This document shows, one piece after another, positions 1-60,541 of a DNA stretch of 64,000 nucleotides (position 1 is its first letter; each line of letters begins with the position of its first letter). Below the pieces are notes generated by a model. That model made no database searches. It was not told the origin of the DNA and saw only the letters and a program-made list of their open reading frames with translations. The stretch is from Shigella phage Sf25: the sequence record MF327009. One strand, written 5' to 3'. A program made the translations under genes and the position numbers.

Positions 1-332
1 CATGTAGCAACCCATGTATCAAGGCTTGGATCTGAAATTAATGACATAAGTACAGCAGACGGTGCACGACCCTGAATGCTATCCAAAAGTGATTGATACT
101 TCAGGTTATTAGTAAAAATATCTTGCTGATATTGAGGAAGCTTGTTAAATTGTGCAGCATCCATCATCAAGTTTACTTCTTCAGGACGCCAGAAAAATGA
201 CAATTGCTTTTCGGTTAAATCTTCAAAAACTTTATGGCGTTGAATATCATAACGCGCAATACCAAGACCTGAACCGAAGAACATAGGTTCTTTTAAAACA
301 TCAACTGGATTTGTATTAAAAACTGTGCTCAT
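1..332 (-). CDS. nrdB: Ribonucleotide reductase small subunit NrdB, N-terminal fragment (continues beyond window start)
   Basis: Minus-strand ATG at 330-332; hand translation MSTVFNTNPVDVLKEPMFFGSGLGIARYDIQRHKVFE...; lies immediately downstream of nrdA as in T-even phages. Confidence 0.8.
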   Translation of the reverse strand, partial: MSTVFNTNPVDVLKEPMFFGSGLGIARYDIQRHKVFEDLTEKQLSFFWRPEEVNLMMDAAQFNKLPQYQQDIFTNNLKYQSLLDSIQGRAPSAVLMSLISDPSLDTWVAT

Positions 333-383
333 AAATTTTCCGCTTAGTTAATAGATAGTGACTCGTCCGTGAGTCAAATTATA

Positions 384-2897
384 TCATAATTTACAGGATG
401 AACAATCTTCAGCTTTTGGAGTTTCTATTTCATAATCATCAGTACCAGAACCGTCACGGGTATTATGATAATAGAAATTTTTTCCGCCAAAATACCAAAA
501 ATATAAAAGGTCATCAATCATTATTGACATTGGAACCTTTCCTTTTGGAAAAATCTGCGGGTCATAATATGTATTAGCTGAAGCTGATTGACATACCCAT
601 TTCAGCATAATAGCTACTTGCGTAAGATAAGGTTTATTGCCTTTCTTAGCTAATTTCCACGTATAATCATAGAGGTCTATGTTATGCTCAATATTGGGCA
701 CGACTTGATTAAAGGAACCCTCTTTTGATTCTTTAACAGAGACTGGTCCACGTGGAGGCTCGATACCGTTTGTACTGTTAGAAACTTGGGAAGATGACTC
801 ACATGGCATAAGTGCTGATAATGTGCTATTACGGATGCCAAAGAGCTTAAGGTCTTCCCGCAGCGACGACCAGTCACAAACGTATTTTGGAGCTGCGATT
901 TGGTCAATCTTTTTATTGTACCAGTCGATAGGTAATTCGCCTCGAGACCAACGAGTGTCTGAATAATATTCGCAAGGTCCTTTTTCTTTGGCGAGCTTAA
1001 TGGATGCTTTAATGAGTCCATACTGTAATCTCTCAAATAGTTCATGTGTTAAATCGTTAGCATCTTCATAAGAAGCAAAATTACTTGCCAGCCAAGCTGC
1101 ATAGTTAGTAACACCTACACCAAGATTTCGACGCTTTTTAGCTTTTTCTGCTTCAGGAACTGGATATCCTTGGTAATCCAAAAGATTATCAAGAGCACGA
1201 ACTTGGACTTCTGCCAATTCATTAATTTTATCTTGGTCTTGCCAATCAAAGTTATCTAACACAAATGCAGATAACGTACACAATCCAATTTCAGCATCAG
1301 GACTATTCACATCATTTGTTGGAATAGCAATTTCACAGCACAAGTTGCTCTGACGAATAGGTGCCTTTTCACGAATAAACGGAGTATAGTTATTCGTATT
1401 ATCTATGAACTGTACATAAATCCTTGCTGTTCCTGAGCGTTCAGTCATGAGCAATTCAAATAGTTCACGGGCTTTAATACGCTTTTTACGAATATTAGGG
1501 TCTTTTTCTGCTGCTTCGTATAATTCACGGAAACGGTCTTGGTCTTTAAAATAAGAATAATAAAGCTCGCCACCCATTTCATGCGGACTGAACAAAGTAA
1601 TGTAATCGTTCTTTCCGAATCGTTCCATCATCAAATCATTCAGCTGAACACCATAATCCATATGACGGATACGGTTTTCTTCTACACCTTTGTTATTTTT
1701 CAAAACGAGAAGATTTTCAACTTCCAAATGCCAAATAGGATAATAAGCAGTAGCAGCGCCGCCACGAATTCCACCCTGTGAGCATGATTTAACAGCAGTC
1801 TGAAAATGTTTCCAAAAAGGAATAACACCAGTATGGCGTACTTCACCTGTGCCAATCTTAGAACCTTCGGCACGAATCATACCAACGTTAATACCAATTC
1901 CATAATCCATATGACGGATACGGTTTTCTTCTACACCTTTGTTATTTTTCAAAACGAGAAGATTTTCAACTTCCAAATGCCAAATAGGATAATAAGCAGT
2001 AGCAGCGCCGCCACGAATTCCACCCTGTGAGCATGATTTAACAGCAGTCTGAAAATGTTTCCAAAAAGGAATAACACCAGTATGGCGTACTTCACCTGTG
2101 CCAATCTTAGAACCTTCGGCACGAATCATACCAACGTTAATACCAATTCCAGCGCGTTTGGAGATATATTCAACAATTGAAGCAGAAGCCTTATTGATAG
2201 ACTTTAATGAATCACCTGCTTCAATAACAACGCATGAACTAAACTGCCGAGTTGGAGTACGGCAACCAGCCATAATAGGAGTTGGCAGTGAAATCTGTCG
2301 AGTAGATACTGCTTCATAAAAACGGATAACGTGTTTTAATCTATCAACAGGTTCATCTTGATGCAATGCCATTCCAATAGTCATAAATGCAAACTGTGGA
2401 GTTTCATAAATTTGACCAGTGGTTTTATCTTTAACTAGATATTTTTCTTTTAATTGCATCGCCCCGGAATAAGTAAATTCCATATCCCGCTCGTGCTTAA
2501 TTTTTGATTCTAAAAATGTAATTTCTTCGGCAGAATATTTTGACAACAATTCAGGGTCATATTTACCTTCATTTACACAGTAAGAAATGTGGTCAATAAA
2601 TGAACGTGGTTCATACTGCCCATAAACATGCTTACGAAGAGCGAACATTAAACAGCGTGCAGCTACATATTGATAATCAGGCTCTTCAACTGAAATAGAA
2701 TTCGCAGCAGCCTTAATTACAATGGTTTGAATGTCATCAGTTGTCATTCCATCACGGAGATATGATTTAATATTTTCATATAATTCATAAGGATCTACAG
2801 ATGTTCCTTCAGCTGCCCAAGATAAAACTTTAATAATTTTTTGCGGGTCAAAGCTCTGAGAAACACCACTACTTTTGATAACATTAATTAATTGCAT
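384..2897 (-). CDS. nrdA: Aerobic ribonucleotide reductase large subunit NrdA; 837 aa including an 83-aa in-frame internal tandem duplication
   Basis: ORF track 837 aa; class I RNR alpha sequence; peptide GIGINVGMIRAEGSKIGTGEVRHTGVIPFWKHF...ENRIRHMDY occurs twice in tandem. Confidence 0.9.
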   Translation of the reverse strand: MQLINVIKSSGVSQSFDPQKIIKVLSWAAEGTSVDPYELYENIKSYLRDGMTTDDIQTIVIKAAANSISVEEPDYQYVAARCLMFALRKHVYGQYEPRSFIDHISYCVNEGKYDPELLSKYSAEEITFLESKIKHERDMEFTYSGAMQLKEKYLVKDKTTGQIYETPQFAFMTIGMALHQDEPVDRLKHVIRFYEAVSTRQISLPTPIMAGCRTPTRQFSSCVVIEAGDSLKSINKASASIVEYISKRAGIGINVGMIRAEGSKIGTGEVRHTGVIPFWKHFQTAVKSCSQGGIRGGAATAYYPIWHLEVENLLVLKNNKGVEENRIRHMDYGIGINVGMIRAEGSKIGTGEVRHTGVIPFWKHFQTAVKSCSQGGIRGGAATAYYPIWHLEVENLLVLKNNKGVEENRIRHMDYGVQLNDLMMERFGKNDYITLFSPHEMGGELYYSYFKDQDRFRELYEAAEKDPNIRKKRIKARELFELLMTERSGTARIYVQFIDNTNNYTPFIREKAPIRQSNLCCEIAIPTNDVNSPDAEIGLCTLSAFVLDNFDWQDQDKINELAEVQVRALDNLLDYQGYPVPEAEKAKKRRNLGVGVTNYAAWLASNFASYEDANDLTHELFERLQYGLIKASIKLAKEKGPCEYYSDTRWSRGELPIDWYNKKIDQIAAPKYVCDWSSLREDLKLFGIRNSTLSALMPCESSSQVSNSTNGIEPPRGPVSVKESKEGSFNQVVPNIEHNIDLYDYTWKLAKKGNKPYLTQVAIMLKWVCQSASANTYYDPQIFPKGKVPMSIMIDDLLYFWYFGGKNFYYHNTRDGSGTDDYEIETPKAEDCSSCKL
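1651..2148. repeat. Exact direct tandem duplication, 2 x 249 bp, inside nrdA (boundaries ambiguous by about 3 nt)
   Basis: Sequence beginning cataatccatatgacggatacggttttcttc recurs at 1652 and 1901 with no mismatch seen by eye. Confidence 0.9.
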
Positions 2898-2915
2898 AAG
2901 TCCTCAACTTGAAAA

Positions 2916-3271
2916 TCGTCTTTAAACAATCGGTTAACTATATGAGCTATTATATCACCATGACACGGCTTTGGTTTACATGTGCATCCTAGCCTCATTC
3001 CACGTAAAGGCTCTAAATGTGCTTTAGTTATTTCTCCGGATTTAATTCGACGTATAAAATCTTTTTTGAATAATTCAATGGCAGCCTCCCGGCTCGTCTT
3101 TAAACAATCGGTTAACTATATGAGCTATTATATCACCATGACACGGCTTTGGTTTACATGTGCATCCTAGCCTCATTCCACGTAAAGGCTCTAAATGTGC
3201 TTTAGTTATTTCTCCGGATTTAATTCGACGTATAAAATCTTTTTTGAATAATTCAATGGCAGCCTCCCGGC
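2916..3271. repeat. Exact direct tandem duplication, 2 x 178 bp, spanning the 3' end of a small ORF just upstream of the nrdA start
   Basis: cgtctttaaacaatcggttaactatatgagc... recurs at 2917 and 3095. Confidence 0.9.
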
Positions 3272-3392
3272 TGCCAGCATCTTTACCGACGTAATTTCCC
3301 CAAAATGTACCACGGTGAATATTAACATCAAAGTCGGATTTATATTTATTCACTACCCGGCATAGACGGCCCGCGCGGTTGTAGGTGTTCAT
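3075..3392 (-). CDS. Hypothetical protein (Cys/His-containing); C-terminus altered by the 178-bp duplication
   Basis: ORF track 105 aa; in the duplicated copy the frame ends ...[11 protein letters not shown], while a single-copy reading would give ...RLFKDDFQVEDLCN overlapping the nrdA ATG. Confidence 0.5.
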
Positions 3393-3609
3393 ATTGTTCT
3401 TCCGTTAAAACAGTAATATCGTAGTAACAGTCAGAAGAAGTTTTAACTGTGGAAATTTTATTATCAAAATACTCACGAGTCATTTTATGAGTATAGTATT
3501 TTTTACCATAAATGGTAATAGGCTGTTCTGGTCCTGGAACTTCTAACTCGCTTGGGTTAGGAAGTGTAAAAAGAACGGCACCAGAAGTATCTTTAAATCG
3601 TAAAATCAT
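3346..3609 (-). CDS. Hypothetical protein
   Basis: ORF track 87 aa; stop overlaps neighbouring ORF; start overlaps td stop (ATGA-type coupling). Confidence 0.5.
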
Positions 3610-4466
3610 ATTGCCATTTTCCCTTTAATTGCTGGATGCGATTCATAATTTTCAAGGATAAAATCTTTCGGTTTCATGTATTCAGTTAACCAGTAAAGCT
3701 GTGTTTCGGTGTCACAATTTCCAAACTCTATAGGCCAATCAATTTTAAGTTCACACAGTTCTTTAGGCTCACGACGTAAAATTTCTTTACATTGCTCAGT
3801 ATGATTCATATAGATGTGAGTATTACCACCAGAAAATATCAAATCTCCTGGGATAAGATTACACATCTTAGCCACAATATGCGTCAAGGCAGCGTACGAG
3901 GCAATGTTGAATGGCAAGCCCAAGAAAACATCTACACTTCTTTGGTACCATTGTAAATCAAGATAACCATTACGCACATTAAACTGATAGAACATATGAC
4001 AGGGCGGTAATGCCATTTGATTGATTTCAGCTGGATTCCATGCTGAAACGATTTGACGTCGATCAGTTGGTAATTTTTTAATACGATCAATAGTTTCAAC
4101 TAATTGATCCACACCACCGAAATCACGCCATTGTTTACCGTATATAGGACCAAGTTCACCACTATGATATCCTAGGTCTTTAGCTTGGTTTTCATAATTG
4201 TCATCCCAGATAGTTTTACCTTGAATAAGACTACCGTGAGTAAGAAGACGTAAATCATTAACATTGGTAGAACCGGAAATAAACCATAAAAGCTCAGCAA
4301 TGCATGCATTCCAGGCGAGCTTCTTAGTTGTTACTGCAGGAAAACCTTTGGTTAAATCCCATCGTAATTTAGTACCGAACAAAGCAATTGTTCCTGTGCC
4401 CGTTCGGTCATCGGTTTCATAGCCATTTTCAAAAATGTCTTTAATTAAATCTTGGTATTGTTTCAT
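3606..4466 (-). CDS. td: Thymidylate synthase, uninterrupted (no group I intron)
   Basis: 286 aa; ThyA motifs including the PPCH catalytic-Cys region; contiguous ORF. Confidence 0.93.
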
Positions 4467-4511
4467 TTAGTACCTTATATAAATTATAATACATTTTATG
4501 AAGCTAAATAA

Positions 4512-4859
4512 TCAATACGGTTTAGCATCAAATTTTCTCTCAATTTCAGGTGTGAAATATAATTCTTTACCGCGTTTGGAAAAGCGACCAATAATATGAT
4601 AATTATTCTCATCAAACGTGATATTACCAATATCCATAGCTTTCAACCAAATATCGATATTTCTATCCAGCTTTATATCAAAATTCCAATACGGAGAACT
4701 ATTACCGAAAATACTACAAGCGGATTCAGTGAAACAGCTACTATAAATCTTGTCTTTAGGAACTACTAATTGATAGACACCTTTAATAAACTGAGGACCT
4801 TGCCATTTTGGCTGTTTCTCGTCTTTTTCTAACAGAATAGGGTAATAATTAAAATTCAT
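4512..4859 (-). CDS. Hypothetical protein located between frd and td
   Basis: ORF track 115 aa; no recognisable domain. Confidence 0.5.
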   Translation of the reverse strand: MNFNYYPILLEKDEKQPKWQGPQFIKGVYQLVVPKDKIYSSCFTESACSIFGNSSPYWNFDIKLDRNIDIWLKAMDIGNITFDENNYHIIGRFSKRGKELYFTPEIERKFDAKPY

Positions 4860-4878
4860 ATTTCCGCCACGCGTTATT

Positions 4879-5705
<827 letters not shown>

Positions 5706-5716
5706 ATTATCTCCTA

Positions 5717-6049: not shown

Positions 6050-6059
6050 AATATTTTCC

Positions 6060-6302: not shown

Positions 6303-6412
6303 TTTATTCTCCTTAGCAAGCTTTAATCAAAAGATATAAACAGACCAACATAACTGCTGCCATAATATAAGGTGCGAACATTTTCTTTTCTCCATTAGTT
6401 TTGATAGGGTAA

Positions 6413-6441
6413 TAGTATCACACTACTACCCTTCTGTAAAC
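6413..6441 (-). promoter_or_regulatory. Putative sigma70-type early promoter (GTTTACA -35 / TACTAT -10, 17-bp spacer)
   Basis: Reverse complement reads GTTTACA...TACTAT upstream of ORF 6060..6302. Confidence 0.35.
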
Positions 6442-6887
6442 TACTTTTTGAAAGTTTTTCGCAAAAGTTCAATGATTTCATCTACATTGTTTTCGTCAAC
6501 AATGCAGTGAATTTTTGTTACGCCAGAAACCTTGTCTATGACTTCATCTACATTGTTTTCGTCAACAATGCAGTGAATTTTTGTTACGCCAGAAACCTTG
6601 TCTTTGACTTCATCTTCTTCAGAAGTCGGTTCTTTATACTCACGAAAACAATGAAATTCATCTTCGCAAATTTCTAAAAGTCTATCTTTGAGGTAAAAAT
6701 GCTTTCCATTTGCGCATTCAATGTGTTTTACTGCTTTATATCCATTAGCGACGGAAACTTCTTTAACTTCAAACCATCCGCCATTATCTCGAATAGCTTT
6801 AACGATTGATGAATTAGAACGTGGGCTATAATTAATAAATGTATCAATAAGTCTTGGAACAAGTTCATACTTTTTGCCAATATACAT
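6441..6887 (-). CDS. Hypothetical protein carrying an in-frame 22-aa tandem repeat
   Basis: ORF track 148 aa; DKVSGVTKIHCIVDENNVDE repeated. Confidence 0.55.
   Translation of the reverse strand: MYIGKKYELVPRLIDTFINYSPRSNSSIVKAIRDNGGWFEVKEVSVANGYKAVKHIECANGKHFYLKDRLLEICEDEFHCFREYKEPTSEEDEVKDKVSGVTKIHCIVDENNVDEVIDKVSGVTKIHCIVDENNVDEIIELLRKTFKK
6477..6608. repeat. Near-exact direct tandem duplication, 2 x 66 bp
   Basis: ttcatctacattgttttcgtcaacaatgcagtgaatttttgttacgccagaaaccttgtct occurs at 6477 and 6543. Confidence 0.85.
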
Positions 6888-8310: not shown

Positions 8311-8311
8311 A

Positions 8312-9136
8312 TTAATACTTGCAAGATTTCACAGTTTCAATAAAAACTTTTTTAGCTTCCTGTGAATCAATATTTAAAATTTTTCTATAAGCCTTTAACT
8401 TTATAGAATAATTATTCCAAACTAAATTATCAGTTTGTTGATCATGTTTATCAATTATATTTAAAAACGAATCAAGCAAGATAAACGTCTCAAACGAAAT
8501 TATGTTCGATTGCAGAAGTTTAAAAATATAACTTGACTGAACTTTTGGATTATACTCAAAAATTTCTTTAAAAGCAGAAACTTCAACTTTTTTACTAAAA
8601 TAATAAATGTTGCGAATATCTTCTTCAAACTTAAATTTAATTTGCTTTAAGCGTCCGATATATTCACGATAAAACACAAGTGCATCAGCGTCAGAGATGT
8701 CACCAATCCAAGCATCTTGGTTAGCAACCAAATTGCTTATAAAGATTAAAGCAAGTTCCTTTAATTTATATTTTTCTGATAACTTCTGGAAAAAATACTT
8801 ATCCCTTCGATTAGTTTTTTCACAACGAACAACAGAAGGACGTAAAAGATTTTCGTCGATAGCTTCTGACTGAATTTTTTCAATTATACCCGAAGGAATA
8901 AATTTAGCAAATTGAGTTTCAGGAATAGAATTTTCTTCTAAGAACGCTGTTGTAGCTTCAAGATAACTCATTCCAAACTCTTCTACCATTTTTTCAATAA
9001 TAAATCCATTTTCTTGGCGGTCAAGAAGCTTTGCTATTTCATCCTTTTCTTTCTTAATTGAAAGTTCTTTTTCTGAAAGACCGGTCTCATCGACCGGACG
9101 AATATCATTTAGAGAAAACTGTGTCATAAAGTTCAA
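8312..9136 (-). CDS. Apparent in-frame fusion ORF: acidic N-terminal part (gp33-like late transcription factor) joined to basic C-terminal part (gp59-like helicase loader)
   Basis: 274 aa; junction near 8806-8812 (...RCEKTN/RRDKYFFQ...); only one ORF between dsbA and gene 32 where T4 has two genes. Confidence 0.55.
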   Translation of the reverse strand: MNFMTQFSLNDIRPVDETGLSEKELSIKKEKDEIAKLLDRQENGFIIEKMVEEFGMSYLEATTAFLEENSIPETQFAKFIPSGIIEKIQSEAIDENLLRPSVVRCEKTNRRDKYFFQKLSEKYKLKELALIFISNLVANQDAWIGDISDADALVFYREYIGRLKQIKFKFEEDIRNIYYFSKKVEVSAFKEIFEYNPKVQSSYIFKLLQSNIISFETFILLDSFLNIIDKHDQQTDNLVWNNYSIKLKAYRKILNIDSQEAKKVFIETVKSCKY

Positions 9137-16134: not shown

Positions 16135-19100
16135 ATGGCTACTTTAAAACAAATACAATTTAAAAGAAGCAAAACTGCAGGTCAACGTCCTGCTGCTTCA
16201 GTATTAGCCGAAGGTGAATTGGCTATAAACTTAAAAGACCGTACTCTTTTTACTAAAGATGACTCGGGAAATATTATTGATTTAAGCATTTCTGCCGGTG
16301 GTAACATTAGTGGAAATATCACTCAAAATGGTGATTATTTACAAAACGGCACGTATAATCTTAATGGAAATCAGTTTGTTTATGCAGGAAAGTATATTGA
16401 ATTCTTGCCAAAAACTGCTGGAAATGGTGCTTGGGCAAATCAGCACACAAATAAAGCTCCAATTTTCACCGATTTGAGTTCAACTACTTCAACTTCTGAA
16501 TATCATCCGCTAATTAAACAACGTTATAAAGATGGAACGTTTTCATTAGGGACTTTAGTTTCTGAAGGCTCAATGAAGATACACTATATCGATGAAACTG
16601 GCACTTCAAAATATTGGACTTTCCGACGTGATGGTGGTTTTGTTGTTGATAGTGGTAGTTTAACTGTTACTGCTGGAAACATATCTGCTTCAGGCAATAT
16701 TAATTCGGCATCAGGGGTTGTTTCAGCTCCTCAAATTAATACAAAAACCATTGTTTTAGATACAAAAGCATTTGGACAATATGATTCGCAGTCATTAGTT
16801 CAGTATGTTTATCCTGGCACTGGCGAAACAAACGGTATAAACTATCTTCGTAAAGTTCGCGCAAAATCAGGTGGTACAATTTATCATGAAATAGCTTCAG
16901 CTCAAAGTGGAAAAAGCGATGAAATTTCGTGGTGGACTGGAAATACAGCCGTTAATAAACAAATGGGTCTTCGTAATGATGGTGCAATGGTATTACGTCG
17001 TTCACTTGCTATTGGCACAATTACTACAGATGAAAACGTAAATAACTATGGATCTGCTGGAGCAATGGGAGAAAAATACATTGTTCTTGGAGATGCGTCA
17101 ACTGGACTAGCTTATAAAAAGACAGGAGTTTATGACTTAGTTGGTAGTGGTTTATCTGTTGCTTCTATCACTCCCGACAGTTTTCGTAGTACCCGTAAAG
17201 CAATTTTTGGACGTTCTGAAGACCAAGGCGGTACATGGCTTCTTCCTGGTCAAAACGCTGCTCTTCTTTCAGTTCGTACAGATATTGATCAAAATAATAA
17301 CGGTGATGGTCAAACTCATATTGGATATAATAGTAACAGCAAGTTTTATCATTATTTTAGAGGCAGAGGCCGAATGGCTGTTGGAATGGCTGAAGGTCTT
17401 ATTGTTGAGCCTGGAATTTTAGATATTAAAACTGGTTCAAATACTGTTTCTATTAGAGCTGATGGCGGAATTTCATCTACTCAGCGTCTTTCATTGCAGA
17501 ATGGTATATTTTTATCTTCTGACGGAAATAACAACGGTATATCGTTTAAAGCTTCTAGCAGTATAGATGGAACTAAAACTCTTAATTGGGATGCTGGTAC
17601 TCGTGCAGGTCAAAACAAAAATACAGTAATTTTAAAAGCATGGGGAAATTCATTTAATACAAGTGGTGGAACTGATAGACATACTGTATTTGAAGTTTCT
17701 GATTCGCAAGGATACTACTTTTATGCTCAACGTACTACCCCTGCATCCGGTCAAACAGTAGGTCCTATTAATTTTAAATTTAATGGTACTGTAGAAACCG
17801 GTCATATCAATGGATTAGGTAATATTACTTTATCTGGGGCAGTTATAGCAGATTCTGCTAATATTAAAGGACCGCTAAAAATATCTAATGCTAATACAGC
17901 TGATGCTTTTAGAATATGGAACGCTGAATATGGAGCCATTTTCCGTCGTTCAGAAACATCATTGCATATTATTCCTACACTTAAAGATGCAGGGGAAAAT
18001 GGTGGAATAAGTAATCTTCGCCCATTAAGTATTGATCTTTCAAACGGATTTGTGCAAATGCATCATTCTCTTTCTGTGGGGAATACAGTAAGAACGAATG
18101 GATTGTTTGCTGTGGATACTTCAGCTGCTCTTGTTGCAATTAACAGATGTTCCTATTGTGAAACAAAGATACGTTCAAGGGAATAGCACCTATTCATTAG
18201 GTACTTTAATTAATGGTGGTGATTTCCGTTTACATTACCATGAAGGCGGTGACAGTTCTTCAACAGGTGCAGTTATAAAAGATATTTCCTGGGAATTTAA
18301 ACGTAATGGTGATTTCTATTCGCCAGGTCGTTTACGTACAGGAAATATCTATATTGGAACTGATGGTAATATCACGGGTGGTTCTGGTAACTTTGCTAAC
18401 TTGAATACAACTTTAAACCGTAAAGTTAATTCTGGTTTTATTACTTATGGAGCAACTGCAGGTTGGTACAAGTTTGCAACAGTAACAATGCCTCAAGCTA
18501 CATCAACCGTTTCAATTACAGTCACTGGCGGAAATGGATTTAATTCTGGATCATTTAATCAGTGTGCAATTTCTGAAATTGTTCTTCGTACAGGAAACAA
18601 TAATCCTCTGGTGATACATATGACATTTATGTTAATATGGGAACATATGCTAATCAGTTGATATTTAACTATAGTTCTGTTGATAATGCCACAGTTCAAA
18701 TTATTGGCGCATTCAGTTCAGCTCAAAATCCTGTTGATGCATTGCCAGAAACATATGTTAAAGGTCAGGTAGCAGATGTATTGACTAACTTAGTTGATTC
18801 TGGAAAAACGAAGCGTTTTGTTGCTGAATCTGAAATAGCTATTAATAATCAAACTGGATTACGTATTACGAGTAATGGTGATAAATCTGGTTCAAATTCA
18901 GTATTATTCAGAAATGATGGATCAGCGTTTTATATTCTTTTAACAGATAAAAACGCAGCAGATGGAAATACGACTGCCACAGAAGGAGATTGGAATGGTA
19001 AACGTCCTTTCCAAATTAATATGACTTCTGGTGAAGTAACATTCGGAAATAATATTAATATTTCTGGAAACGGAAGCATTACTTGGACAAAAGCCGGAGC

Positions 19101-19800: not shown

Positions 19801-20498
19801 ATGGCAATTGTAGGTGTTCCTGGCTGGATTGGTGAATCTGCCGTGAATGAAACAGGACAGCGTTGGATGGATGCTGCAATGAGAGCAGTCCGTGTTTCAG
19901 TTCCCGGTTGGATGAGCTCAATGGCCGGACAATCTAAAGAAGTATATTATAGCATTGGTGCTAGTAATTCTTATAATAAAGATACATTAATAAACTGAAT
20001 GCATACGTGACACTTAATATCAATTCAGGCGTGCATGTTTGGGGCCGTGGCGGGAATGGCGGAAATAACTCTGCCGGTGGAGCAGGAGGAACTGCAATAA
20101 ATAATGGAATTGGAACTAGATTGCGTATTAACAACAATGGTGTTATCGCAGGAGGCGGTGGCGGCGGTGGAGGCGGATATTATTCTCCTTTTTCACAAAT
20201 GAAATTGACTTTTGGCGGTGGCGGCGGTCGTCCATTTGGTGCTGCTGGCGGGTCTGCTAATATGGAACAGGGCGCTACTGCTGGTACTATTTCTGCACCT
20301 GGTAAAGGGTCTGTCAATGGTATCTATAATGGCGGGAATGGCGGTGATGCTGGTGCCGCAGGTGGTAAATGTAATATTCGTGGGCAAGGATCAGAATATA
20401 ACGGCGGTGCGGCCGGTAAAGCTGTTACTGGTAATGCTCCAACTTGGACTAAGGTTGGTACAATATATGGCCCTCTGATATTCTATTTGGTGTTCTAG
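19801..20498 (+). pseudogene. 38: Receptor-recognising adhesin gp38 (T2-type, glycine-rich motifs), split into two reading frames
   Basis: N-terminal 65-aa ORF (MAIVGVPGWIG...) ends at a stop at 19996-19998; the glycine-rich part (GGGGGGGGYY...) follows in another frame from 20007. Confidence 0.55.
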
Positions 20499-29330: not shown

Positions 29331-31757
29331 TTAGGCCGCAAGGGCCTTCATAGTTTTAGCGATTTGAGAAACTTCATCATCACTTAAAGAGTTGCGATAA
29401 CCGATGAAGTCGGAAACAATACGGAATTTCTTGGTAAACTCAGCAACCATTTTATCACTGTTTTTTGAAGCATTATTTGATAATACATCAAAAAGATTAG
29501 TTACTGTCCAGATGTCATGACCGATGGTACCTTTTCCACCGTTGAAATATACGCCCCGCAATGAACTAACTATATTAGCGAGTCGTGTATATTCTTCAGA
29601 AACTTCATCTGTACTGAAGTACTTCATCATAAAATCTAGTTCAGGATACTTGATAATTTTATCAATATATCGTTGAGCTGAACTTGAATAACCTACGTAC
29701 TTATCATAATCTACATCATCAAAAGCATCTACATATAAATCACGCAGAGTTTCAAAAATACATTGGCACTGACCGAGTTCTTTTACCTTTTTCTGCAAAA
29801 GCGGACGAATAACATAAAATTCATTAATGCCAATAAGATTAGCCATACGAATCAAAATATTCATAGATGGATGACAAAGAGATGTAGTACCATCCATAGA
29901 GAAAATATCAGAACGATGCATATACGCTACATAACCAGTAATTTCATCTGCTTCTGATGTGAGCGTAAACAGTTCCTCTTTTTCCCATCGCCCATCTTTA
30001 ATTTCAAACTTAAATGCTGTAGCAGCTTTAGGACGAGGAGCTTTACTTTTAACTACCTTTGGAATATAGCTTTTAACTAAAGCTTCAATTTCTGACAAAT
30101 AATGAATGTTAACTTCATCACTTTCAAACATCGCCATAATATCAGGAAGTAAATCAATCTGCGATTCTACTTCTGGATTAATAAACAGAAGACGCTCATT
30201 GTGATGAATATTCAAAGTGTTATTAAATTCACTATCATCTAACGCATGTGCTAATCCACGAACAATATTAACACGATTTTTAATATTATCAATAACGATA
30301 TTAATTTTTGTTGTATTAATACCAAACAGACGATAACTTGATGCAACGGCTGAAGTTTCATGACTTTGCTTAATGCGTTTCAGTCGAGGGTCAAGATTTA
30401 CTTCATACACAACTCCTGCATTGCATAACTTACTGTCAGGTTCAAACATGCTCTGCATCTTTTTATATGACAGATTTTTAGTCGTGAATTTGACTGAATT
30501 ACTAATCATATAATCTCGAGCAGAATATCCCATCTTCATCAATTCACGATATGTGTGACGAGGAGATGTAGATTCTTTAAATCGTTTTACATCTTCATTG
30601 AATGCCTTCTCACTAAGCTCTTTAACACGCTCAATAATATTTTTACGAGTACGATCATCTAGTGAAAGAGCTTCGCGTGATGGAGCAATATCAAGTGAAC
30701 CCATTGGAAACTTAATGTAATTCACTTCATTGCGAATGCTTAGCCAGTTACGGTCTCTAATAACACCATCGATAGGATAAACAATACCGCCATAGATAGC
30801 ATATAATCCACCACGATCAGGCCAGTATCTTTCTGGATTTACACCATAATAATCATCAAAATCAGGAAAATAATCAATTTCAATAATATTTTTACGAGTA
30901 CGATCATCTAGTGAAAGAGCTTCGCGTGATGGAGCAATATCAAGTGAACCCATTGGAAACTTAATGTAATTCACTTCATTGCGAATGCTTAGCCAGTTAC
31001 GGTCTCTAATAACACCATCGATAGGATAAACAATACCGCCATAGATAGCATATAATCCACCACGATCAGGCCAGTATCTTTCTGGATTTACACCATAATA
31101 ATCATCAAAATCAGGAAAATAATCAATTTCGCGGTCAAGACCATTAATGATAGCCAAATCTTTGAACGGTCGCATGATATAAGAAACTTCATAAGCAAAG
31201 TTTCTAAAGTCTTTTTCTTCAACTGGAACTACGATTTCAATACCAGTTTTATCATCTGGACCCATTTCTTTTACGAATGTAGGTTTAATCTGTGGGCCAT
31301 CACCATCCATGTAAGCTACATAACCACGAATTTCACCTTTATGATACGAAGTAATACTAAACGTATCAGTATAACTAAACGGAGATTTAGAACCTAAACC
31401 AAATCCGCCAATAAAGTCATTAGATTCAGCCTTAGATGAACTGAAGTATGAATTATACAGCCCAGGAGAATTATCATCACCCTGAATATCAAAATCACTC
31501 ATACCCGGACCAAAATCTCGACAAACAAATCGTGGATCTAATCGTCCTGGAACTTGAATGATAAATTTTTCAGGATTTCCATTAAGTGCATGAGCATCAA
31601 TCATGTTAGTAATCAATTCACGGACTACTGCGCGAATCTTGTTTGTATACAAATCAGATGACAGAATTTTAAATACTTTAGGATTTGCTGCGATGCTAAA
31701 TGCTTTTGATTTAGAACCATTGCCAAGAATTGTTTCTTTTTCAGTGGTGATAATCAT
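29331..31757 (-). CDS. rIIA: rIIA protein; 808 aa including an 83-aa in-frame tandem duplication
   Basis: N-terminal GHKL-like ATPase sequence; peptide [25 protein letters not shown]...RTRKNII occurs twice. Confidence 0.9.
30632..31129. repeat. Exact direct tandem duplication, 2 x 249 bp, inside rIIA
   Basis: caataatatttttacgagtacgatcatctagtgaaagagc... begins at 30632 and 30881. Confidence 0.9.
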
Positions 31758-41716: not shown

Positions 41717-42163
41717 TTATAGATTAAATCCTTCAAAATCAAGAGTATAGATAGTATATGTTGAATACTTTTTGTACTCATATCTATCTGCAATTCTAAA
41801 TACACTTCCAGCTGGTATCATTACTTCTTGTTCATCTGAAACTAATTCCATATTACGATAACGATGACTATCCGGAAACTTAAAGTTTGGATTGTATTCT
41901 TTACAGCGTAGAGCTTTTATAGCATACTCCTGGAAATTGAATACCATAGGAGCTTTGAATTCAAAAATAACTTGTGTGTTATACTCTAAAATTTCATTTA
42001 ACCAAGTATGGTCATCTGGTTTATTAGTAATACAATGAATTAAAAGTTCAATTTCAGATAAATTAAACCCTTCAGAAAGTAATTCTTCACGAATAGAAGC
42101 ACGCACCGATGCATCCATTGATTTTATTTTAAAATCTTTTAGTTGCATTACTGAGTATTTCAT
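41717..42163 (-). CDS. modA: ADP-ribosyltransferase paralog (ModA-like), shorter than expected
   Basis: 148 aa; catalytic E-x-E region SDEQEVMIPAG paralogous to the upstream ORF; start overlaps the modB stop (ATGA). Confidence 0.5.
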   Translation of the reverse strand: MKYSVMQLKDFKIKSMDASVRASIREELLSEGFNLSEIELLIHCITNKPDDHTWLNEILEYNTQVIFEFKAPMVFNFQEYAIKALRCKEYNPNFKFPDSHRYRNMELVSDEQEVMIPAGSVFRIADRYEYKKYSTYTIYTLDFEGFNL

Positions 42164-42809: not shown

Positions 42810-42839
42810 ATCATATCATCGTTAGAAAGGAAAGTAAAC
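42810..42839 (-). promoter_or_regulatory. Putative early promoter for modB (GTTTAC-N18-TATGAT); part of it is re-created in the adjacent duplication
   Basis: Reverse complement GTTTACTTTCCTTTCTAACGATGATATGAT, then GGAGG RBS. Confidence 0.5.
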
Positions 42840-43228
42840 AACTTTTTGAATTATTTTGCCCAGGGAGCCCAAGGCGGAGGGTCAAGATGGTATGAAGCTA
42901 GTTCTTCTAGAAGAGCATCTGGGGCTTCAATTCCATAATTCTGTAATACTATACGGTACTCTTTCTTATAATCACTAGAATCATTCTGGTTATTCGTAGA
43001 ATGATTATCTTCTAACATTCATATCATCGTTAGAAAGGAAAGTAAACAACTTTTTGAATTATTTTGCCCAGGGAGCCCAAGGCGGAGGGTCAAGATGGTA
43101 TGAAGCTAGTTCTTCTAGAAGAGCATCTGGGGCTTCAATTCCATAATTCTGTAATACTATACGGTACTCTTTCTTATAATCACTAGAATCATTCTGGTTA
43201 TTCGTAGAATGATTATCTTCTAACATCT
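42813..43228. repeat. Exact direct tandem duplication, 2 x 208 bp, covering a promoter/intergenic region and most of a small ORF
   Basis: atatcatcgttagaaaggaaagtaaacaactttttgaattattttgcccagggagccc... begins at 42813 and 43021. Confidence 0.9.
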
Positions 43229-45530: not shown

Positions 45531-46293
45531 TTAATAGCCTCGATCTTGACGAGCGAAGTTTTCAGCATTTTTCAGATAATAAAGTTTAAAGATTTCCTCA
45601 GCTGACATTCCAAGAGCAATGAATTTATTCATGAAAAAGTGAAATTGGTCAATCAGTTCAAATTTAATTTCAAGCTGATCTTCAGGAGATAAGTCTTGAA
45701 TTTTCTTGGATTGCATTTCAGAATAACGTTTCTTCCAAGGTTTCCATACAGCAGAAGCTTCTTTTTCACCATTACTCATACCACCAAGAGAAGTATATAG
45801 CTCGCGAGTTTCATCTGCGATATAATCGTCTTGGTTTCGCAACCAAGCAAGAACTTCTCCTGCAGTTTCAAGTGAATCAGGATGACGATTTGTTTCTGGT
45901 TTATCATTAGCCAAACGAATCTGTAAATGCCGCTGCATGTCAAATTTTCTTGGATTGCATTTCAGAATAACGTTTCTTCCAAGGTTTCCATACAGCAGAA
46001 GCTTCTTTTTCACCATTACTCATACCACCAAGAGAAGTATATAGCTCGCGAGTTTCATCTGCGATATAATCGTCTTGGTTTCGCAACCAAGCAAGAACTT
46101 CTCCTGCAGTTTCAAGTGAATCAGGATGACGATTTGTTTCTGGTTTATCATTAGCCAAACGAATCTGTAAATGCCGCTGCATGTCAAGCATAACCTGCAA
46201 TGGGTCAATACTGTGCATAATATACTCAGCATATGCACGATTTGCTTTATCAACACCTTCGATCAAATGAGCACATTCATTAAAGTGAGCCAT
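45531..46293 (-). pseudogene. 56: dCTPase/dUTPase gp56 (MazG-like) disrupted by a frameshifting 244-bp tandem duplication
   Basis: N-terminal frame MAHFNECAHLIEGVDK... (AAGGAAA RBS) terminates at the repeat junction near 45940; C-terminal part ...ALGMSAEEIFKLYYLKNAENFARQDRGY is in another frame. Confidence 0.6.
45700..46187. repeat. Exact direct tandem duplication, 2 x 244 bp (not a multiple of 3), inside gene 56
   Basis: attttcttggattgcatttcagaataacgtttcttcc... begins at 45700 and 45944. Confidence 0.9.
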
Positions 46294-54536: not shown

Positions 54537-55381
54537 TCACCGTTATAATCTTTTTTCACAATATGAGTTTCGCCAGTATTCCACCAATGATCAACCAAGT
54601 AAAAATGACGAGAATATACATGAAGACTTCCAACATTCCATATAATAGAACCTGCTTTATACTGACGAGTTGAATCGCCGGCATTCAAATCAGATACTAA
54701 TTTATCTAATACGTATTTTTGCCATGCATAATCATTACGGAATCCGAAGACCACGTCATTTGAGCGCATGCTTACTACTGCATTGACTTTCTTATCACGA
54801 ATCAGGTACTGTACTGTATTAGTACACATGAAATCTGACATACCATCTTTATTGTAGTCAAATTGCATGGATGGACGAGTCATGCTTACTACTGCATTGA
54901 CTTTCTTATCACGAATCAGGTACTGTACTGTATTAGTACACATGAAATCTGACATACCATCTTTATTGTAGTCAAATTGCATGGATGGACGAGTATAAAT
55001 CATGATACCACGTCGAGAATCAGGATTTTGACCAAGTTCAGCTAAACACATATCATACTGGGCATAGTTATCTTCTGACCAAATAGCCCAACCATAATTC
55101 GAGTTAATTTCGCCTTTAGAAGATGCTACCTGCTGCCAAATCTTTGGTGTTTCGCCTGGAATATCTTTGACAAACAGACTTTGAGACTTGTACCATTCAA
55201 GTTCACGCTGAATGTATTCATCATTAAGAGCGCCAAAAATAAAGGGTTCATCTGCTACAAATGATGCGCCAATAATTTCAATAGTTTTAACACCGGTTTT
55301 ATCAACTACGAAATCTTTTTCTTTTAATGCAAGCCCCAAATGAAGACGGATTTCTTCAACTGTCATAAAGTCACTAATCAT
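54527..55381 (-). CDS. 42: dCMP hydroxymethylase gp42; 284 aa including a 38-aa in-frame tandem duplication
   Basis: ThyA-like fold sequence; peptide TRPSMQFDYNKDGMSDFMCTNTVQYLIRDKKVNAVVSM occurs twice. Confidence 0.9.
   Translation of the reverse strand: MISDFMTVEEIRLHLGLALKEKDFVVDKTGVKTIEIIGASFVADEPFIFGALNDEYIQRELEWYKSQSLFVKDIPGETPKIWQQVASSKGEINSNYGWAIWSEDNYAQYDMCLAELGQNPDSRRGIMIYTRPSMQFDYNKDGMSDFMCTNTVQYLIRDKKVNAVVSMTRPSMQFDYNKDGMSDFMCTNTVQYLIRDKKVNAVVSMRSNDVVFGFRNDYAWQKYVLDKLVSDLNAGDSTRQYKAGSIIWNVGSLHVYSRHFYLVDHWWNTGETHIVKKDYNGEWK
54767..54994. repeat. Exact direct tandem duplication, 2 x 114 bp, inside gene 42
   Basis: catgcttactactgcattgactttcttatcacgaatcagg... begins at 54767 and 54881. 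Confidence 0.9.
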
Positions 55382-56601: not shown

Positions 56602-59445
56602 TCAGCCAAACAGGAAGTCTAACGAAGCTTTTTCTTCATAGTCCATACCAGCCGATTCACACATGCCTGCAAGCGGTTTAACAAACGATTTTTGGAACAA
56701 AGTTGAGTAGTCAATCCAAGACAGTACGTCAGAACGAATTTCTTTTGGAAGTTCTGTACCCGACGGCCAAGCAATGCATTTGTCACCAAATGGATTTCCT
56801 TCACGCAATGGAAGAACCATTACTTTATTTCCATCCAAAATTGGAGCTACACCTAAACCGCTAACAGCTCGACGATAAGTTAGCACACCACGAATATGGA
56901 ACGGACATTTAAATCCTGGCCAACCTTTATCATCATATTTCGCTATATCGTTCGCAGTTTTTACTTCAGCAATAACTTTATAGTCAAGTTGACGATATTC
57001 TTTCTCGAAGTTCTTGTAATATTCTTGGACAGACTCTTCACCTTCCTGAAGAATACGACGAATACTTTCTTCGAGAGCTTCTTGGACCGCTTTAGGCGTT
57101 GAACTCTGCTGAGTTTCCATACCCATGATTTTTAGATGCGGTTCAGCAAATCGCTTATCTTCCATATCATATACGTTCAGAGCATAACGCTTTTTCGCTT
57201 TCCAAAATCCGCCAACGCCCTTTGAACCAAGTGGAGGGCAAGAAATAGCTTCACGGTCCATATGCATCAGATGCTCGCGGTTATTCATATAATCACATAA
57301 CTCACGATATGCAACATCAATCATAGGTTCCATCTTTTTCTTACCGAACTGATTCATGAATTCAACTAAATCGTTCTGCTCTTTGAATCGGTCAAGACCA
57401 ACTTTTTCAATAACTTTATCTACACAAACATATACCGAATCAGTATCACCTGCTGCAATGAAATCTTCGCCATTAGTTCCGCATACTTTATTCAGATATT
57501 CATTAATTTTACGAGCAATCCACTGAATACCAACTTGGCCGAAAATTGTGATAGCAGTAGCATTTCGCAAATCATAGTAACGGAAATGAATATTACCAAG
57601 AGCACCATAAAGACTGTTAATAAGAATTTTACGGTTCAGCTGATTTGTGTTAGCAAGTGTAGCTGCTTTTTCACACTCTTCGATCAAACTATTAAGAACA
57701 GATTCGGTGTAATTCGATAGTTCATTTAAGAAATCATCACTGAACTTAACATATCGTTCAACTTCTGGTTTAGTTGAGCAAGACCCTGCGCCTTTCATAA
57801 TAATCTTTTTAATAGCTTCGGCATTCATTTCTTCAGCGAACATTTTCTTTTTCCAATCTTTACGCTGGAAAAATACTTTAGCGATTTCCTTTGGAATGAT
57901 ACCTTCTTGATGCTTATCATACATCCATCCATTCGGAGAACAAGAATATTCATCACTCGGTTTAGGAGCTGTTCCTGCGATATATTCATGAATTGGATGA
58001 ACTTTAAACTGACCACGAATAGTCTCAGGACTAATGTTAACCTGACGAATAATGCTCGGATACAGAGACGTCAAGTCAAAACTCATAATATATCGACGAG
58101 CAATTGGTTTAGGTTCAAACACAAATGCACCCGGAAAACTCTGTTTAACGTGCGAACCTTGTTGAGGAATAACCTTATGTTCACCTTTCAATGAGTTAAA
58201 AATAATAGCATCCCAAGTTTTAATAGGACTCATTACACCGGAAAAAGGCATTTTAGCGTAATAAGACATACTTAAAACTAGATCGATAAACCCGCGAATT
58301 TTATCAATTGCTTGAACTGATTCTACGTCAATGATGTTATAACTAATGTATCGTTGATGATTAGTCTCACGAAGTTTATTAATAGGACCGTCGTATGGTA
58401 ATTTACCTTTTTTGGTTTCATGTTGAGCAACTGATTCCAAAGAGAATGACGGCAAATTAGTAAAAGCGAATTTCTTGTACAAATCTAAATAATCAAGAAT
58501 AGATACGCCATCAATAGAATAAATTTCTTTGCTGCCGTACATATTTTGAATTAGTTTGGATTTTACCCGACCGATTGGAGAGAAACGTTTCATACTGCGT
58601 TCGCCTAGAATCATTTTAACACGATTCATGATATATGGAACGTCAAACCCCTCAATATTCCAACCGGTAAAAATAGCAGGTCGTTTCTGTTCCCAGAGAT
58701 TGATATATTCCATGAGCATATCACGCTCATTATCGAATGGCATATAAATTACTCGGTCAAGAATTTCTTGAGGAACTTCATCACCACCTTCACAGTCAAG
58801 CTTAGCAGCTAACTTTGCATCCCATTTTGATACTGAACCGTACATTGAATTCAAAAGGTCGAAAACATAAAAACGATCGTCAATTGAATCGTAATGAGTG
58901 ATAGCATCAATTTCATATTCAGCTTTCATTGGGTCAGGAAATTTATCACCAGTAACCTCAATGTCACAGTTAGCTACACGAACACCGTACATTGAATTCA
59001 AAAGGTCGAAAACATAAAAACGATCGTCAATTGAATCGTAATGAGTGATAGCATCAATTTCATATTCAGCTTTCATTGGGTCAGGAAATTTATCACCAGT
59101 AACCTCAATGTCACAGTTAGCTACACGAACAAATTTTCGGTCATAAACAATTTCTGAACCATATGTATCACTGATATAAGCGAGTTTAAAATCGTTCATA
59201 CCGAGAGCTTCGAGACCGATGTCTTCCATTCGCTTCATCCAATCTCGAGCATCTTTCATTGATGGAAATTTTTGAGGAGCGCAGTTTTTACCATAGATGT
59301 CTTTGTACTTTGACTCTTCCTTACAATGCCTAAACATAGTTGGAAGATATTCTACTTCACGAGTACGTTCCTTTCCATTTTCATCAATATAACGTTCAAC
59401 AATATTATTTCCGACTGTTTCAATAGAGATATAAAATTCTTTCAT
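56602..59445 (-). CDS. 43: DNA polymerase gp43 (family B); 947 aa including a 49-aa in-frame tandem duplication in the N-terminal/exonuclease region
   Basis: Pol B motifs (DxxSLYPS-like FDLTSLYPSII, YGDTDS-like GDTDSVY); peptide VRVANCDIEVTGDKFPDPMKAEYEIDAITHYDSIDDRFYVFDLLNSMYG occurs twice. Confidence 0.92.
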   Translation of the reverse strand: MKEFYISIETVGNNIVERYIDENGKERTREVEYLPTMFRHCKEESKYKDIYGKNCAPQKFPSMKDARDWMKRMEDIGLEALGMNDFKLAYISDTYGSEIVYDRKFVRVANCDIEVTGDKFPDPMKAEYEIDAITHYDSIDDRFYVFDLLNSMYGVRVANCDIEVTGDKFPDPMKAEYEIDAITHYDSIDDRFYVFDLLNSMYGSVSKWDAKLAAKLDCEGGDEVPQEILDRVIYMPFDNERDMLMEYINLWEQKRPAIFTGWNIEGFDVPYIMNRVKMILGERSMKRFSPIGRVKSKLIQNMYGSKEIYSIDGVSILDYLDLYKKFAFTNLPSFSLESVAQHETKKGKLPYDGPINKLRETNHQRYISYNIIDVESVQAIDKIRGFIDLVLSMSYYAKMPFSGVMSPIKTWDAIIFNSLKGEHKVIPQQGSHVKQSFPGAFVFEPKPIARRYIMSFDLTSLYPSIIRQVNISPETIRGQFKVHPIHEYIAGTAPKPSDEYSCSPNGWMYDKHQEGIIPKEIAKVFFQRKDWKKKMFAEEMNAEAIKKIIMKGAGSCSTKPEVERYVKFSDDFLNELSNYTESVLNSLIEECEKAATLANTNQLNRKILINSLYGALGNIHFRYYDLRNATAITIFGQVGIQWIARKINEYLNKVCGTNGEDFIAAGDTDSVYVCVDKVIEKVGLDRFKEQNDLVEFMNQFGKKKMEPMIDVAYRELCDYMNNREHLMHMDREAISCPPLGSKGVGGFWKAKKRYALNVYDMEDKRFAEPHLKIMGMETQQSSTPKAVQEALEESIRRILQEGEESVQEYYKNFEKEYRQLDYKVIAEVKTANDIAKYDDKGWPGFKCPFHIRGVLTYRRAVSGLGVAPILDGNKVMVLPLREGNPFGDKCIAWPSGTELPKEIRSDVLSWIDYSTLFQKSFVKPLAGMCESAGMDYEEKASLDFLFG
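58837..59130. repeat. Exact direct tandem duplication, 2 x 147 bp, inside gene 43
   Basis: accgtacattgaattcaaaaggtcgaaaacataaaaacgatcg... begins at 58837 and 58984. Confidence 0.9.
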
Positions 59446-60116: not shown

Positions 60117-60541
60117 TTACCATTCCAATGCTAGTTTTTTGAGTTGTTTCTGTTCTTTTACGTTCTTAGTCACTTCTTTCAAAAAATCATATCTTCGACC
60201 AGTTTTGCCCATTTACCATATCTTTTACCACGAGGAACTGCAGCCATCAGATAATTAAAATGAGCTTCATCACTTAAGCCTGATCCAATTAAATTCATAG
60301 CATATACAGCTGGCATGCACTCTGGAAATTGTGATAATGCATTTTCAACCATGAATTTTGAATAATCTTTTTGAGCAATAGAGCATTTAGTTTTATTATT
60401 AATAGCTCCAATTATTTCAAAAAATTCATTTTCAGCTTTTTCTTTAAAAGAATCAGCAGCAGATTGGACAGCTGTCCAATCTTTTGAATACCAAGCAACT
60501 TGATGCTCGTTTAATTGAATATCATCTTCAAATAAGCTCAT
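60117..60541 (-). pseudogene. 62: Clamp loader small subunit gp62, disrupted by an internal frameshifting lesion
   Basis: N-terminal frame [22 protein letters not shown]... stops at 60179 (...KLVEDMIF*); downstream, out of frame, [23 protein letters not shown] ends at the regA start. Confidence 0.55.

Follow-up and report, generated by a model that had tools for sequence, protein, structure and literature searches.

A 249-nt in-frame tandem duplication in the nrdA gene of a T4-like phage sequence, very probably a scar of sequence construction

Results

The nrdA locus

The window, by which we mean the whole stretch of 64,000 nucleotides that was analysed, belongs to a Tequatrovirus whose closest relative is Shigella phage Sf24. 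Near its beginning lies an open reading frame for the large subunit of ribonucleotide reductase (RNR), which codes for 837 amino acids as written and for 754 with one copy of an internal repeat taken out. The features at this locus are as follows.

384..2897, minus strand: nrdA open reading frame, class Ia ribonucleotide reductase alpha subunit (ORF list, Pfam, E. coli NrdA structures)
1900..2148, minus strand: first copy in gene orientation, NrdA residues ~250-332, 100% identical to 1651-1899 and aligned with E. coli NrdA ~253-335
1651..1899, minus strand: second copy in gene orientation, NrdA residues ~333-415 (repeat scans and translation)
1899..1900, no strand: copy-to-copy junction, the sole novel sequence made by the duplication (40-mer search)
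2149..2151, no strand: 3-nt CCA extension of the repeat (exact-run scan), which fits chance

A first-pass annotation had described here a 249-nt in-frame tandem duplication that adds 83 residues and whose copies appeared identical by eye, and the repeat finders, an exact scan and the translation all bear this out. A repeat search of the window matched 1651-1899 to 1900-2148 at 100% identity, Tandem Repeats Finder placed a period of 249 with 2.0 copies and a 100% match at 1651-2151, and the exact-run scan returned a matching run of 252 nt, made up of the 249 nt and the extension CCA. In the protein, residues 250-332 (GIGINVGMIRAE...NRIRHMDY) recur as 333-415. An exact repeat of 249 nt in nrdA cannot have originated by chance. 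The CCA triplet had also been put forward as microhomology at the boundary; it is indeed present, and as a clue to mechanism it fails, since an extension of 3 nt or more occurs in about 6.5% of simulated random duplications in the window sequence. A border direct repeat longer than chance, which would mark a genuine duplication, is absent at nrdA.

The 837-aa protein matches PF03477 (ATP-cone), PF00317 (Ribonuc_red_lgN) and PF02867 (Ribonuc_red_lgC) above the Pfam cut-offs, in the class Ia order of an ATP-cone, then an all-alpha domain, then a ten-stranded barrel domain. The Pfam barrel domain is matched as two stretches, and the E. coli NrdA structures likewise match in two stretches (E = 2.5e-289). 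The motifs FSSCVV, SNLCCEI, LCTLSAF, FYYHNT and CSSCKL are found once each, aligned to the E. coli motifs that cover C225, N437/C439/E441, C462, Y730/Y731 and the C-terminal Cys pair. The loop 2 motif SQGGIRGG, on the other hand, occurs twice, at 290 and 373, and not in a single-copy loop segment. Specificity loops 1 and 2 lie within the part of the catalytic barrel that corresponds to E. coli residues 253-335, the segment that is duplicated here (PMC4728125). In the extra 249 nt neither the structure match nor Pfam gave any signature of an intron, an intein or an endonuclease.

With one copy removed, the 754-aa protein agrees at every residue with P0001, a protein carried on 75 public contigs. 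All of the 120 nearest NrdA clusters have 754 aa, the typical length in T4-like phages from which the 837-aa protein departs, so the figure of 754 aa given for T4 NrdA in the first-pass annotation was right. Compared with ten genomes that encode P0001, the nrdA of the window shows 34-52 nucleotide differences, every one synonymous, and no gaps. The combination of 0 amino-acid changes with 34-52 synonymous ones indicates strong purifying selection on NrdA, with which, judged from these alignments, an 83-aa insertion would be hard to reconcile. No exact match to the 837-aa protein is on record, the 40-mer across the 1899/1900 junction is absent from viral_contigs and metagenome_contigs, and the best 15 of 580 matching phage records cover the junction only as two pieces at the ends of one 252-nt stretch.

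Six further exact duplications

The nrdA event had been taken as confined to a single gene. This view did not survive, because the window holds six further exact duplications, the next only 770 nt away. The seven two-copy tandem duplications measure 114, 147, 178, 208, 244, 249 and 249 nt, and all have 2.0 copies at 100% identity. Those outside nrdA are the following.

2916..3271, minus strand: 178 nt twice, out of frame, in an nrdA.1-like DUF4326 gene, whose product shortens from 108 to 105 aa and has a changed C-terminus (exact repeat, relatives)
30631..31128, minus strand: 249 nt twice, in frame, in rIIA, which goes from 725 to 808 aa (exact repeat, relatives)
42811..43226, minus strand: 208 nt twice, covering a modA.2-like gene of 60 aa together with the region upstream of it, with one intact gene copy left
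45699..46186, minus strand: 244 nt twice in gene 56 (dCTPase), frameshifted, with 117 native residues and then a stop
54767..54994, minus strand: 114 nt twice, in frame, in gene 42 (dCMP hydroxymethylase), which goes from 246 to 284 aa with residues 130-167, including Cys148, doubled
58837..59130, minus strand: 147 nt twice, in frame, in gene 43 (DNA polymerase), which goes from 898 to 947 aa with residues 106-154 doubled, the Exo I motif D112-I-E114 among them

Four of the seven are in frame and three out of frame (P = 0.17 for four in frame under a one-in-three chance), and the microhomology at the seven junctions is 0-3 nt, with a sum of 8 nt (P = 0.20 against simulated random placement). 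Since both the in-frame fraction and the microhomology match chance, neither a homology-driven mechanism nor selection for frame is indicated. A shared breakpoint motif, such as a restriction or primer site, is not visible in the sequences at the duplication borders. The largest size, 249 nt, occurs twice (P ~0.02 under a uniform size distribution), and this shared maximum may reflect a strict upper limit slightly below 250, for instance a read length.

Deletions in the same window

Sequence has also been lost. In the window at least six stretches of 70-173 nt have been cleanly deleted, with a possible seventh of ~335 nt; the six lie at these places.

8809..8812, minus strand: breakpoint at which 173 nt are lost, so that residues 1-106 of gp33 run into residues 54-217 of gp59; fusion ORF 8312..9136
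18146..18607, plus strand: two frameshifting deletions in gp37, of 173 nt and 70 nt, which turn gp37 into three ORFs
20470..20471, plus strand: breakpoint where 72 nt are missing, with loss of the gp38 stop, the intergenic region and the opening 21 codons of holin t (against Sf24 only)
41990..41991, minus strand: breakpoint of a clean 156-nt deletion in modA, in frame (52 aa), absent from both relatives compared
60190..60191, minus strand: breakpoint where a clean loss of 139 nt puts the clamp-loader gene 62 out of frame, a deletion absent from both relatives compared

The 173 nt missing at gp33/gp59 are carried by all 13 relatives compared, and in the fusion gp33 is without its C-terminal tail and the gp59 part is truncated at its N-terminus. 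Between the two gp37 deletions lies a 461-nt piece that is 85-91% identical to Sf24, with flanks at ~100%; none of the best 12 of 52 phage records spans the 173-nt and 70-nt deletions in one piece. Two of the deletions have the same size, 173 nt, which neither an assembler nor editing explains.

Comparison with relatives

None of the duplications and deletions of the window was found in any relative examined. Each of the seven duplicated stretches is single-copy sequence in the closest relatives, and a search of 222 kb from ten related genomes for two-copy tandem duplications with a period of 50-399 nt returned none. After removal of the seven second copies, positions 1-6500 of the window gave a gap-free alignment of 6073 nt with phage SholemSchwarzbard. 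Genomes with identical Td and gp39 proteins are 93-98% identical to the window at the DNA level. The 1289-aa gp34 of the window has no exact protein match, and a window-specific 36-mer is absent from the viral and metagenome contigs.

Viability of the genome as written

Gene 56 as written ends after 117 of its 172 residues, and denB is intact. T4 with a mutant gene 56 makes stable DNA only when denB is defective too (PMC1635256). With gene 56 cut short while denB is intact, and with gp33/gp59, gene 62, gp37 and t, likewise essential in T4, all broken, the lesions are jointly lethal and the genome as written is not viable. A genuine nrdA duplication would call for a viable carrier, and its companion lesions in the window deny it one. 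The nrdA gene is dispensable in T4, and its duplication would therefore not be lethal by itself; the argument from viability rests on the accompanying lesions together with the assumption of one shared cause.

Discussion

The nrdA duplication is very probably a scar of how the sequence was constructed, by mis-joined contigs or by equivalent editing, and not a property of phage DNA. The window shows what such an origin should leave behind: two undiverged copies that are absent from close relatives, and the same event recurring regardless of gene or frame, accompanied by joins that lose sequence. Because it is one of ~14 duplications and deletions that the phage would not survive, the nrdA repeat is almost certainly an error of sequence construction. 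The first-pass annotation had proposed either a very recent event or an artefact; the companion duplications and deletions, which the relatives examined lack, support the artefact and argue against a real recent event.

In the mechanism that we propose, the genome would have been recovered as many pieces, either contigs or gap-filling extensions, which would then have been ordered, probably along a T4-like reference, and butted together without their ends being reconciled. Where neighbouring pieces overlapped, the shared stretch would be written twice, yielding an exact two-copy tandem duplication; where neighbours failed to meet, bases would be lost, yielding a clean deletion. The nrdA event would then be one uncollapsed overlap of 249 nt. 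Overlaps of one k-mer size, the signature of de Bruijn contig ends, are not what the window holds: their lengths vary between 114 and 249 nt, which excludes simple concatenation of de Bruijn contigs, and we rejected for the same reason the fixed k-mer overlap model that fits Escherichia phage BYEP02. Overlap lengths that vary point to overlap-type joins, gap filling or in-silico editing.

BYEP02 (OR757454.1, deposited as a complete genome) is the nearest parallel. It is a member of the same phage group, and at the same locus two-copy tandem duplications recur several times within a few kilobases: the corresponding 6.8 kb contain three duplications of 77 nt, one of them inside nrdA, which the record annotates as three CDSs. 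Like those of the window, its duplications are absent from relatives. They differ in that all are 77 nt long, as a fixed k-mer overlap would give, and one is only 93% identical, whereas the duplications of the window range from 114 to 249 nt and are all 100% identical. The BYEP02 record is 154.7 kb long, compared with ~167 kb in relatives. A general search of the literature returned nothing specific on assembly-duplication artefacts in phage genomes.

Natural events of two other kinds resemble the nrdA event in part. Natural interruptions of nrd genes in T4-like phages, namely group I introns, inteins and splits by homing endonucleases, also lengthen or divide an nrd gene, but they consist of foreign sequence that is spliced out, or they leave two subunits, whereas the extra 249 nt of the window are a verbatim copy of the adjoining coding sequence. 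The relative L019 has an I-TevI intron in td, a gene neighbouring the nrdA locus. Genuine short-homology duplications of T-even phages, represented by the classical T4 rII duplications and by the one in frd.2, are head-to-tail like that of nrdA, lie within a gene and can be in frame. In frd.2, however, an imperfect direct repeat of 11-12 nt brackets the single-copy state and the copies of the 66-nt duplication differ at one base, while the nrdA event has a 3-nt extension at the level of chance and no divergence. Duplications in T4 are usually kilobases long and unstable.

Could the duplication nevertheless be real, a very recent in-frame event in a viable phage, with the other lesions either unrelated errors or real as well? 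Tandem duplications are known to arise in T4, the natural-looking 66-nt duplication of frd.2 lies in this same window, and a real duplication in nrdA would be tolerated, since the phage can do without its own RNR as long as it has the host enzyme; it is, moreover, in frame and keeps one full set of NrdA catalytic residues. Against this, the nrdA duplication is like the six others in its 2.0 copies, its 100% identity and its chance-level microhomology, and one of those six frameshifts the essential gene 56. A real event would also double residues of the catalytic barrel (E. coli 253-335) together with loops 1 and 2, in a protein held free of amino-acid change by purifying selection, and none of the 120 nearest clusters carries it. 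We regard a real duplication as highly improbable. Still less credible is that the stock carries an NrdA with residues 250-332 doubled that is nonetheless a functional or regulatorily altered RNR; if it were true, the doubled loops 1 and 2 would offer a natural experiment on RNR allostery and on the plasticity of the barrel fold. The lesions might instead be real ones of defective or minority molecules, such as recombination intermediates or non-viable genomes in a mixed lysate or metagenome, that were stitched into one consensus. The gp37 segment at 18147-18607, with its lower identity to Sf24 between nearly identical flanks, would fit a sample that contained more than one strain, but with ~14 independent lesions on one 64-kb path every rare variant would have had to prevail in the consensus. 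The duplicated segments do not significantly exceed the background in conservation (P = 0.04-0.45), the borders of the duplications do not sit at variant sites, and we give this reading very little credence. We also considered that contigs break at segments shared between the strains of a mixed sample; raw counts were suggestive, permutation against four references gave P = 0.15, 0.04, 0.45 and 0.23, and the idea was dropped as unsupported.

Within the class of construction artefacts, the duplications and deletions may have been put programmatically or deliberately into a correct natural genome, as simulated structural variants are. All seven duplications are perfect, while real contig ends often err, which slightly favours in-silico editing over an assembler; the lesion sizes fall in a narrow band of 70-337 nt, with 249 and 173 each occurring twice; placement and frame look random; and the collections searched contain no copy of the sequence, whether in its lesioned or in an intact form. 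On the other side, BYEP02 presents the same pathology in a real deposited genome, and the low-identity patch of gp37 between two deletions looks more like stitched pieces than like a simulated edit. Deliberate editing is a possibility that we hold only tentatively, and we infer the joining of pieces to be the likelier cause within the artefact class; simulated editing leaves a signature identical to that of piece-joining, and from sequence alone the two cannot be separated.

The practical value of the finding lies in quality control. The ~14 scars create false protein variants, including the 837-aa NrdA, an 808-aa rIIA, a 947-aa DNA polymerase, a 284-aa dCMP hydroxymethylase and a gp33-gp59 "fusion", and they create false pseudogenes from genes 56, 62, 37 and t. 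Annotation, protein-family lengths, the mining of domain fusions and the calling of structural variants would all be misled by such a sequence. Screening for several exact two-copy tandem repeats of 50-400 nt per genome that have no flanking homology would flag records of this kind, and at least one genome deposited in GenBank, BYEP02, has the same pathology. For the biology of the phage itself the nrdA duplication has no significance, because the NrdA of the real phage is almost certainly an ordinary one of 754 aa.

Results

The window belongs to a T4-like phage (Tequatrovirus) and is collinear with Shigella phage Sf24, at 96-99% identity, across nrdB-nrdA-td-frd, gp32, the tail fibres, rIIB/rIIA, gp39, dda, modA/B, gene 56, dam, gp61, gp41, uvsX, gene 42, gene 43 and genes 62/44/45/46. 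The td gene is unbroken (3606-4466, 286 aa); in one relative, genome L019, td has an I-TevI intron, a difference in gene content that looks natural. Sf24 has a SegG homing endonuclease between gp32 and gp59; the window lacks it (8275-8311), and this absence, like a 104-nt indel in gp38 and a 128-nt indel near ndd.2a, may be natural variation.

Within nrdA (384..2897, minus strand, 837 aa), the first-pass annotation had described a 249-bp in-frame tandem duplication, and its coordinates are right: Tandem Repeats Finder reports 1651-1899 and 1900-2148 as the same sequence, with a period of 249, 2.0 copies, a 100% match and no indels, and a separate repeat search also finds the pair 100% identical, as the annotation had judged. 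An exact-run scan follows the match for 3 nt more, into the CCA at 2149-2151 that had been remarked on as boundary microhomology. The gain of 83 residues in frame, and the peptide named, are also correct, since NrdA residues 250-332 (GIGINVGMIRAE...NRIRHMDY) recur as 333-415.

A domain search finds the ATP-cone, all-alpha and barrel domains of class Ia RNR alpha in this ORF, and structures of E. coli NrdA match it (E = 2.5e-289) in two stretches because the repeat interrupts the barrel domain. Each copy is equivalent to residues about 253-335 of E. coli NrdA and includes the stretch with specificity loop 1 (259-278) and loop 2 (292-301, with Gln294 and Arg298; PMC4728125). Those catalytic motifs that lie outside the repeat each occur once. 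A comparison with reference NrdA length, given as 754 aa for T4, had been proposed; among 5.8 billion proteins searched, the best 120 clusters were all 754 aa, the length of the window's protein minus one copy, and aligned to just 60% of the query. The 837-aa protein itself has no exact match on record. Removing one copy from the window's NrdA gives exactly the recorded protein P0001, which is encoded on 75 contigs, and de-duplicated nrdA (384-2897) shows 34-52 nt differences, no gaps and only synonymous changes against ten genomes that encode P0001 (L012-L021). Zero amino-acid change over so many differences points, by sequence comparison, to very strong purifying selection acting on the NrdA of T4-like phages. 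From its nearest relatives the gene has diverged at 1.5-2.3% of positions, synonymous only, whereas the two copies have zero divergence, which makes the duplication more recent than any evolution that can be detected. Searches of IMG/VR and the JGI metagenome contigs gave no match to the 40 nt across the junction, and the best 15 of 580 phage records match a junction-spanning query only as two pieces, which map to either end of a single 252-nt stretch.

When the whole window is scanned, seven exact two-copy tandem duplications emerge, and each corresponds to sequence that the closest relatives have only once.

Exact tandem duplications in the window
1651-2148, nrdA: 249 nt twice, 754 to 837 aa
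2916-3271, nrdA.1-like DUF4326 gene: 178 nt twice, frameshift near the gene end
30631-31128, rIIA: 249 nt twice, 725 to 808 aa
42811-43226, modA.2-like gene: 208 nt twice, one copy of the gene still intact
45699-46186, gene 56 (dCTPase): 244 nt twice, frameshift
54767-54994, gene 42: 114 nt twice, 246 to 284 aa, doubling residues 130-167 including Cys148
58837-59130, gene 43: 147 nt twice, 898 to 947 aa, doubling residues 106-154 including the Exo I motif D112-I-E114

The 178-nt duplication is not in the close relatives SholemSchwarzbard or BYEP02, and those in rIIA, the modA.2-like gene, gene 56, gene 42 and gene 43 are not in Sf24. With the seven second copies removed, the first 6 kb gives a gap-free alignment of 6073 nt to SholemSchwarzbard, with 104 mismatches. 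No exact tandem duplication with a period of 50-399 nt is present in ten related genomes, which together amount to 222 kb.

As written, gene 56 reaches a stop after 117 native residues; without copy 2 its product is 172 aa long and matches Sf24 gp56 exactly. The denB gene is whole (185 aa, matching the DenB PHROG family full-length, E = 1.8e-97). T4 gene 56 mutants make no stable DNA unless denB is defective too, and an alc mutation is additionally required for plaques (PMC1635256). On this precedent, a gene 56 frameshift together with an intact denB means that the genome as written should be incapable of replication.

Alignment of the window to Sf24 also calls clean deletions, whose breakpoints abut.

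Clean deletions in the window
8811 (8809-8812): 173 nt, joining gp33 residues 1-106 to gp59 residues 54-217
18146 and 18607: 173 nt and 70 nt in gp37 (16135-19770), leaving the 461-nt piece between them out of frame
20470: 72 nt, gp38 without its stop, holin t without its first 21 codons, and the intergenic region lost
41990/41991: 156 nt in frame, ModA short by 52 residues
45498/45499: possible deletion of about 335 nt, with loss of two small genes next to soc
60190/60191: 139 nt, clamp-loader gene 62 frameshifted

The gp33-gp59 fusion ORF (8312..9136, minus strand) has lost the C-terminal TLDFLL tail of gp33 and the N-terminus of gp59, and none of the 13 relatives compared carries its deletion. 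The distal long tail fibre gp37 is broken into ORFs of 683, 187 and 377 aa; the 461-nt piece has only 85-91% identity to Sf24 against about 100% in its flanks, and none of the best 12 of 52 phage records bridges the breakpoints in one piece. The deletions at 8811 and 18146 are both exactly 173 nt. Altogether there are about fourteen lesions in the 64 kb, and the genes struck include 33, 59, 62, 37, t and 56.

Microhomology at the seven duplication junctions is 3, 1, 2, 0, 1, 0 and 1 nt. Simulations of random duplications in the window sequence give a mean extension of 0.76 nt, and a sum of at least 8 over seven junctions has P = 0.20; four of the seven are in frame (P = 0.17 under random frame) and three are out of frame. 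Since both properties are at chance level, neither a homology-driven mechanism nor selection for reading frame is indicated.

The frd.2-like ORF (6441..6887, minus strand) has a 66-nt (22-aa) in-frame duplication at 6472-6603 whose copies differ at one base, and FRD2 is 148 aa in the window versus 120-128 aa elsewhere. The duplication was not found among the top-listed relatives. In Sf24, where the segment is single-copy, an imperfect 12-nt direct repeat (ATGATTTCATCT ... TTGACTTCATCT) flanks it, and only about 0.2% of simulated random duplications have an extension of at least 6 nt. Unlike the seven exact duplications, it looks like a genuine, older event. A simple crossover between the two Sf24 repeats would not give its junction repeat (ATGACTTCATCT), which therefore calls for an additional mutation or another ancestor.

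Discussion

The simplest source of both kinds of lesion would be pieces of sequence joined end to end with their ends unreconciled: overlaps between pieces would be written twice as exact short duplications, and gaps between them would be dropped as clean short deletions. Such joining would be blind to gene and frame, would need no flanking homology and would leave many lesions per genome. A precedent is phage BYEP02 (GenBank OR757454.1, 'complete genome', 154.7 kb), which carries, in the same 6.8 kb, three two-copy duplications of 77 nt, the 6.8 kb being the nrdB-frd region (1149-1302, 2707-2860 and 5109-5260; two at 100%, one at 93%), and an nrdA annotated as three CDSs. An unvarying length of 77 nt is characteristic of k-mer overlaps, and the record looks like concatenated k = 77 contigs. 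Duplication lengths in the window vary, however, which rules out simple concatenation of de Bruijn contigs there. Its two largest duplications, in nrdA and rIIA, share the length of 249 nt (P about 0.02 if sizes were uniformly distributed), a hint of an upper limit slightly under 250, for instance a read length. Duplications and deletions put in deliberately in silico would have the same appearance as piece joining, and under either the nrdA duplication is not biological.

That the nrdA duplication is real and tolerated by the phage we regard as very improbable, even though it keeps frame and nrdA is dispensable in T4, because it is alike in every property to six companions, one of them lethal, doubles the specificity loops within the catalytic barrel and is without counterpart in any relative compared. 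An origin of the lesions in minority or defective molecules, or at strain-collapse breakpoints, gained no support from the conservation and border analyses. Between the two origins offered by the first-pass annotation, an artefact is backed and a very recent event is not, and the evidence supports a repeat that is real in the sequence, yet an artefact and not a genuine feature. It clearly illustrates a kind of assembly scar that yields false protein variants and false pseudogenes.
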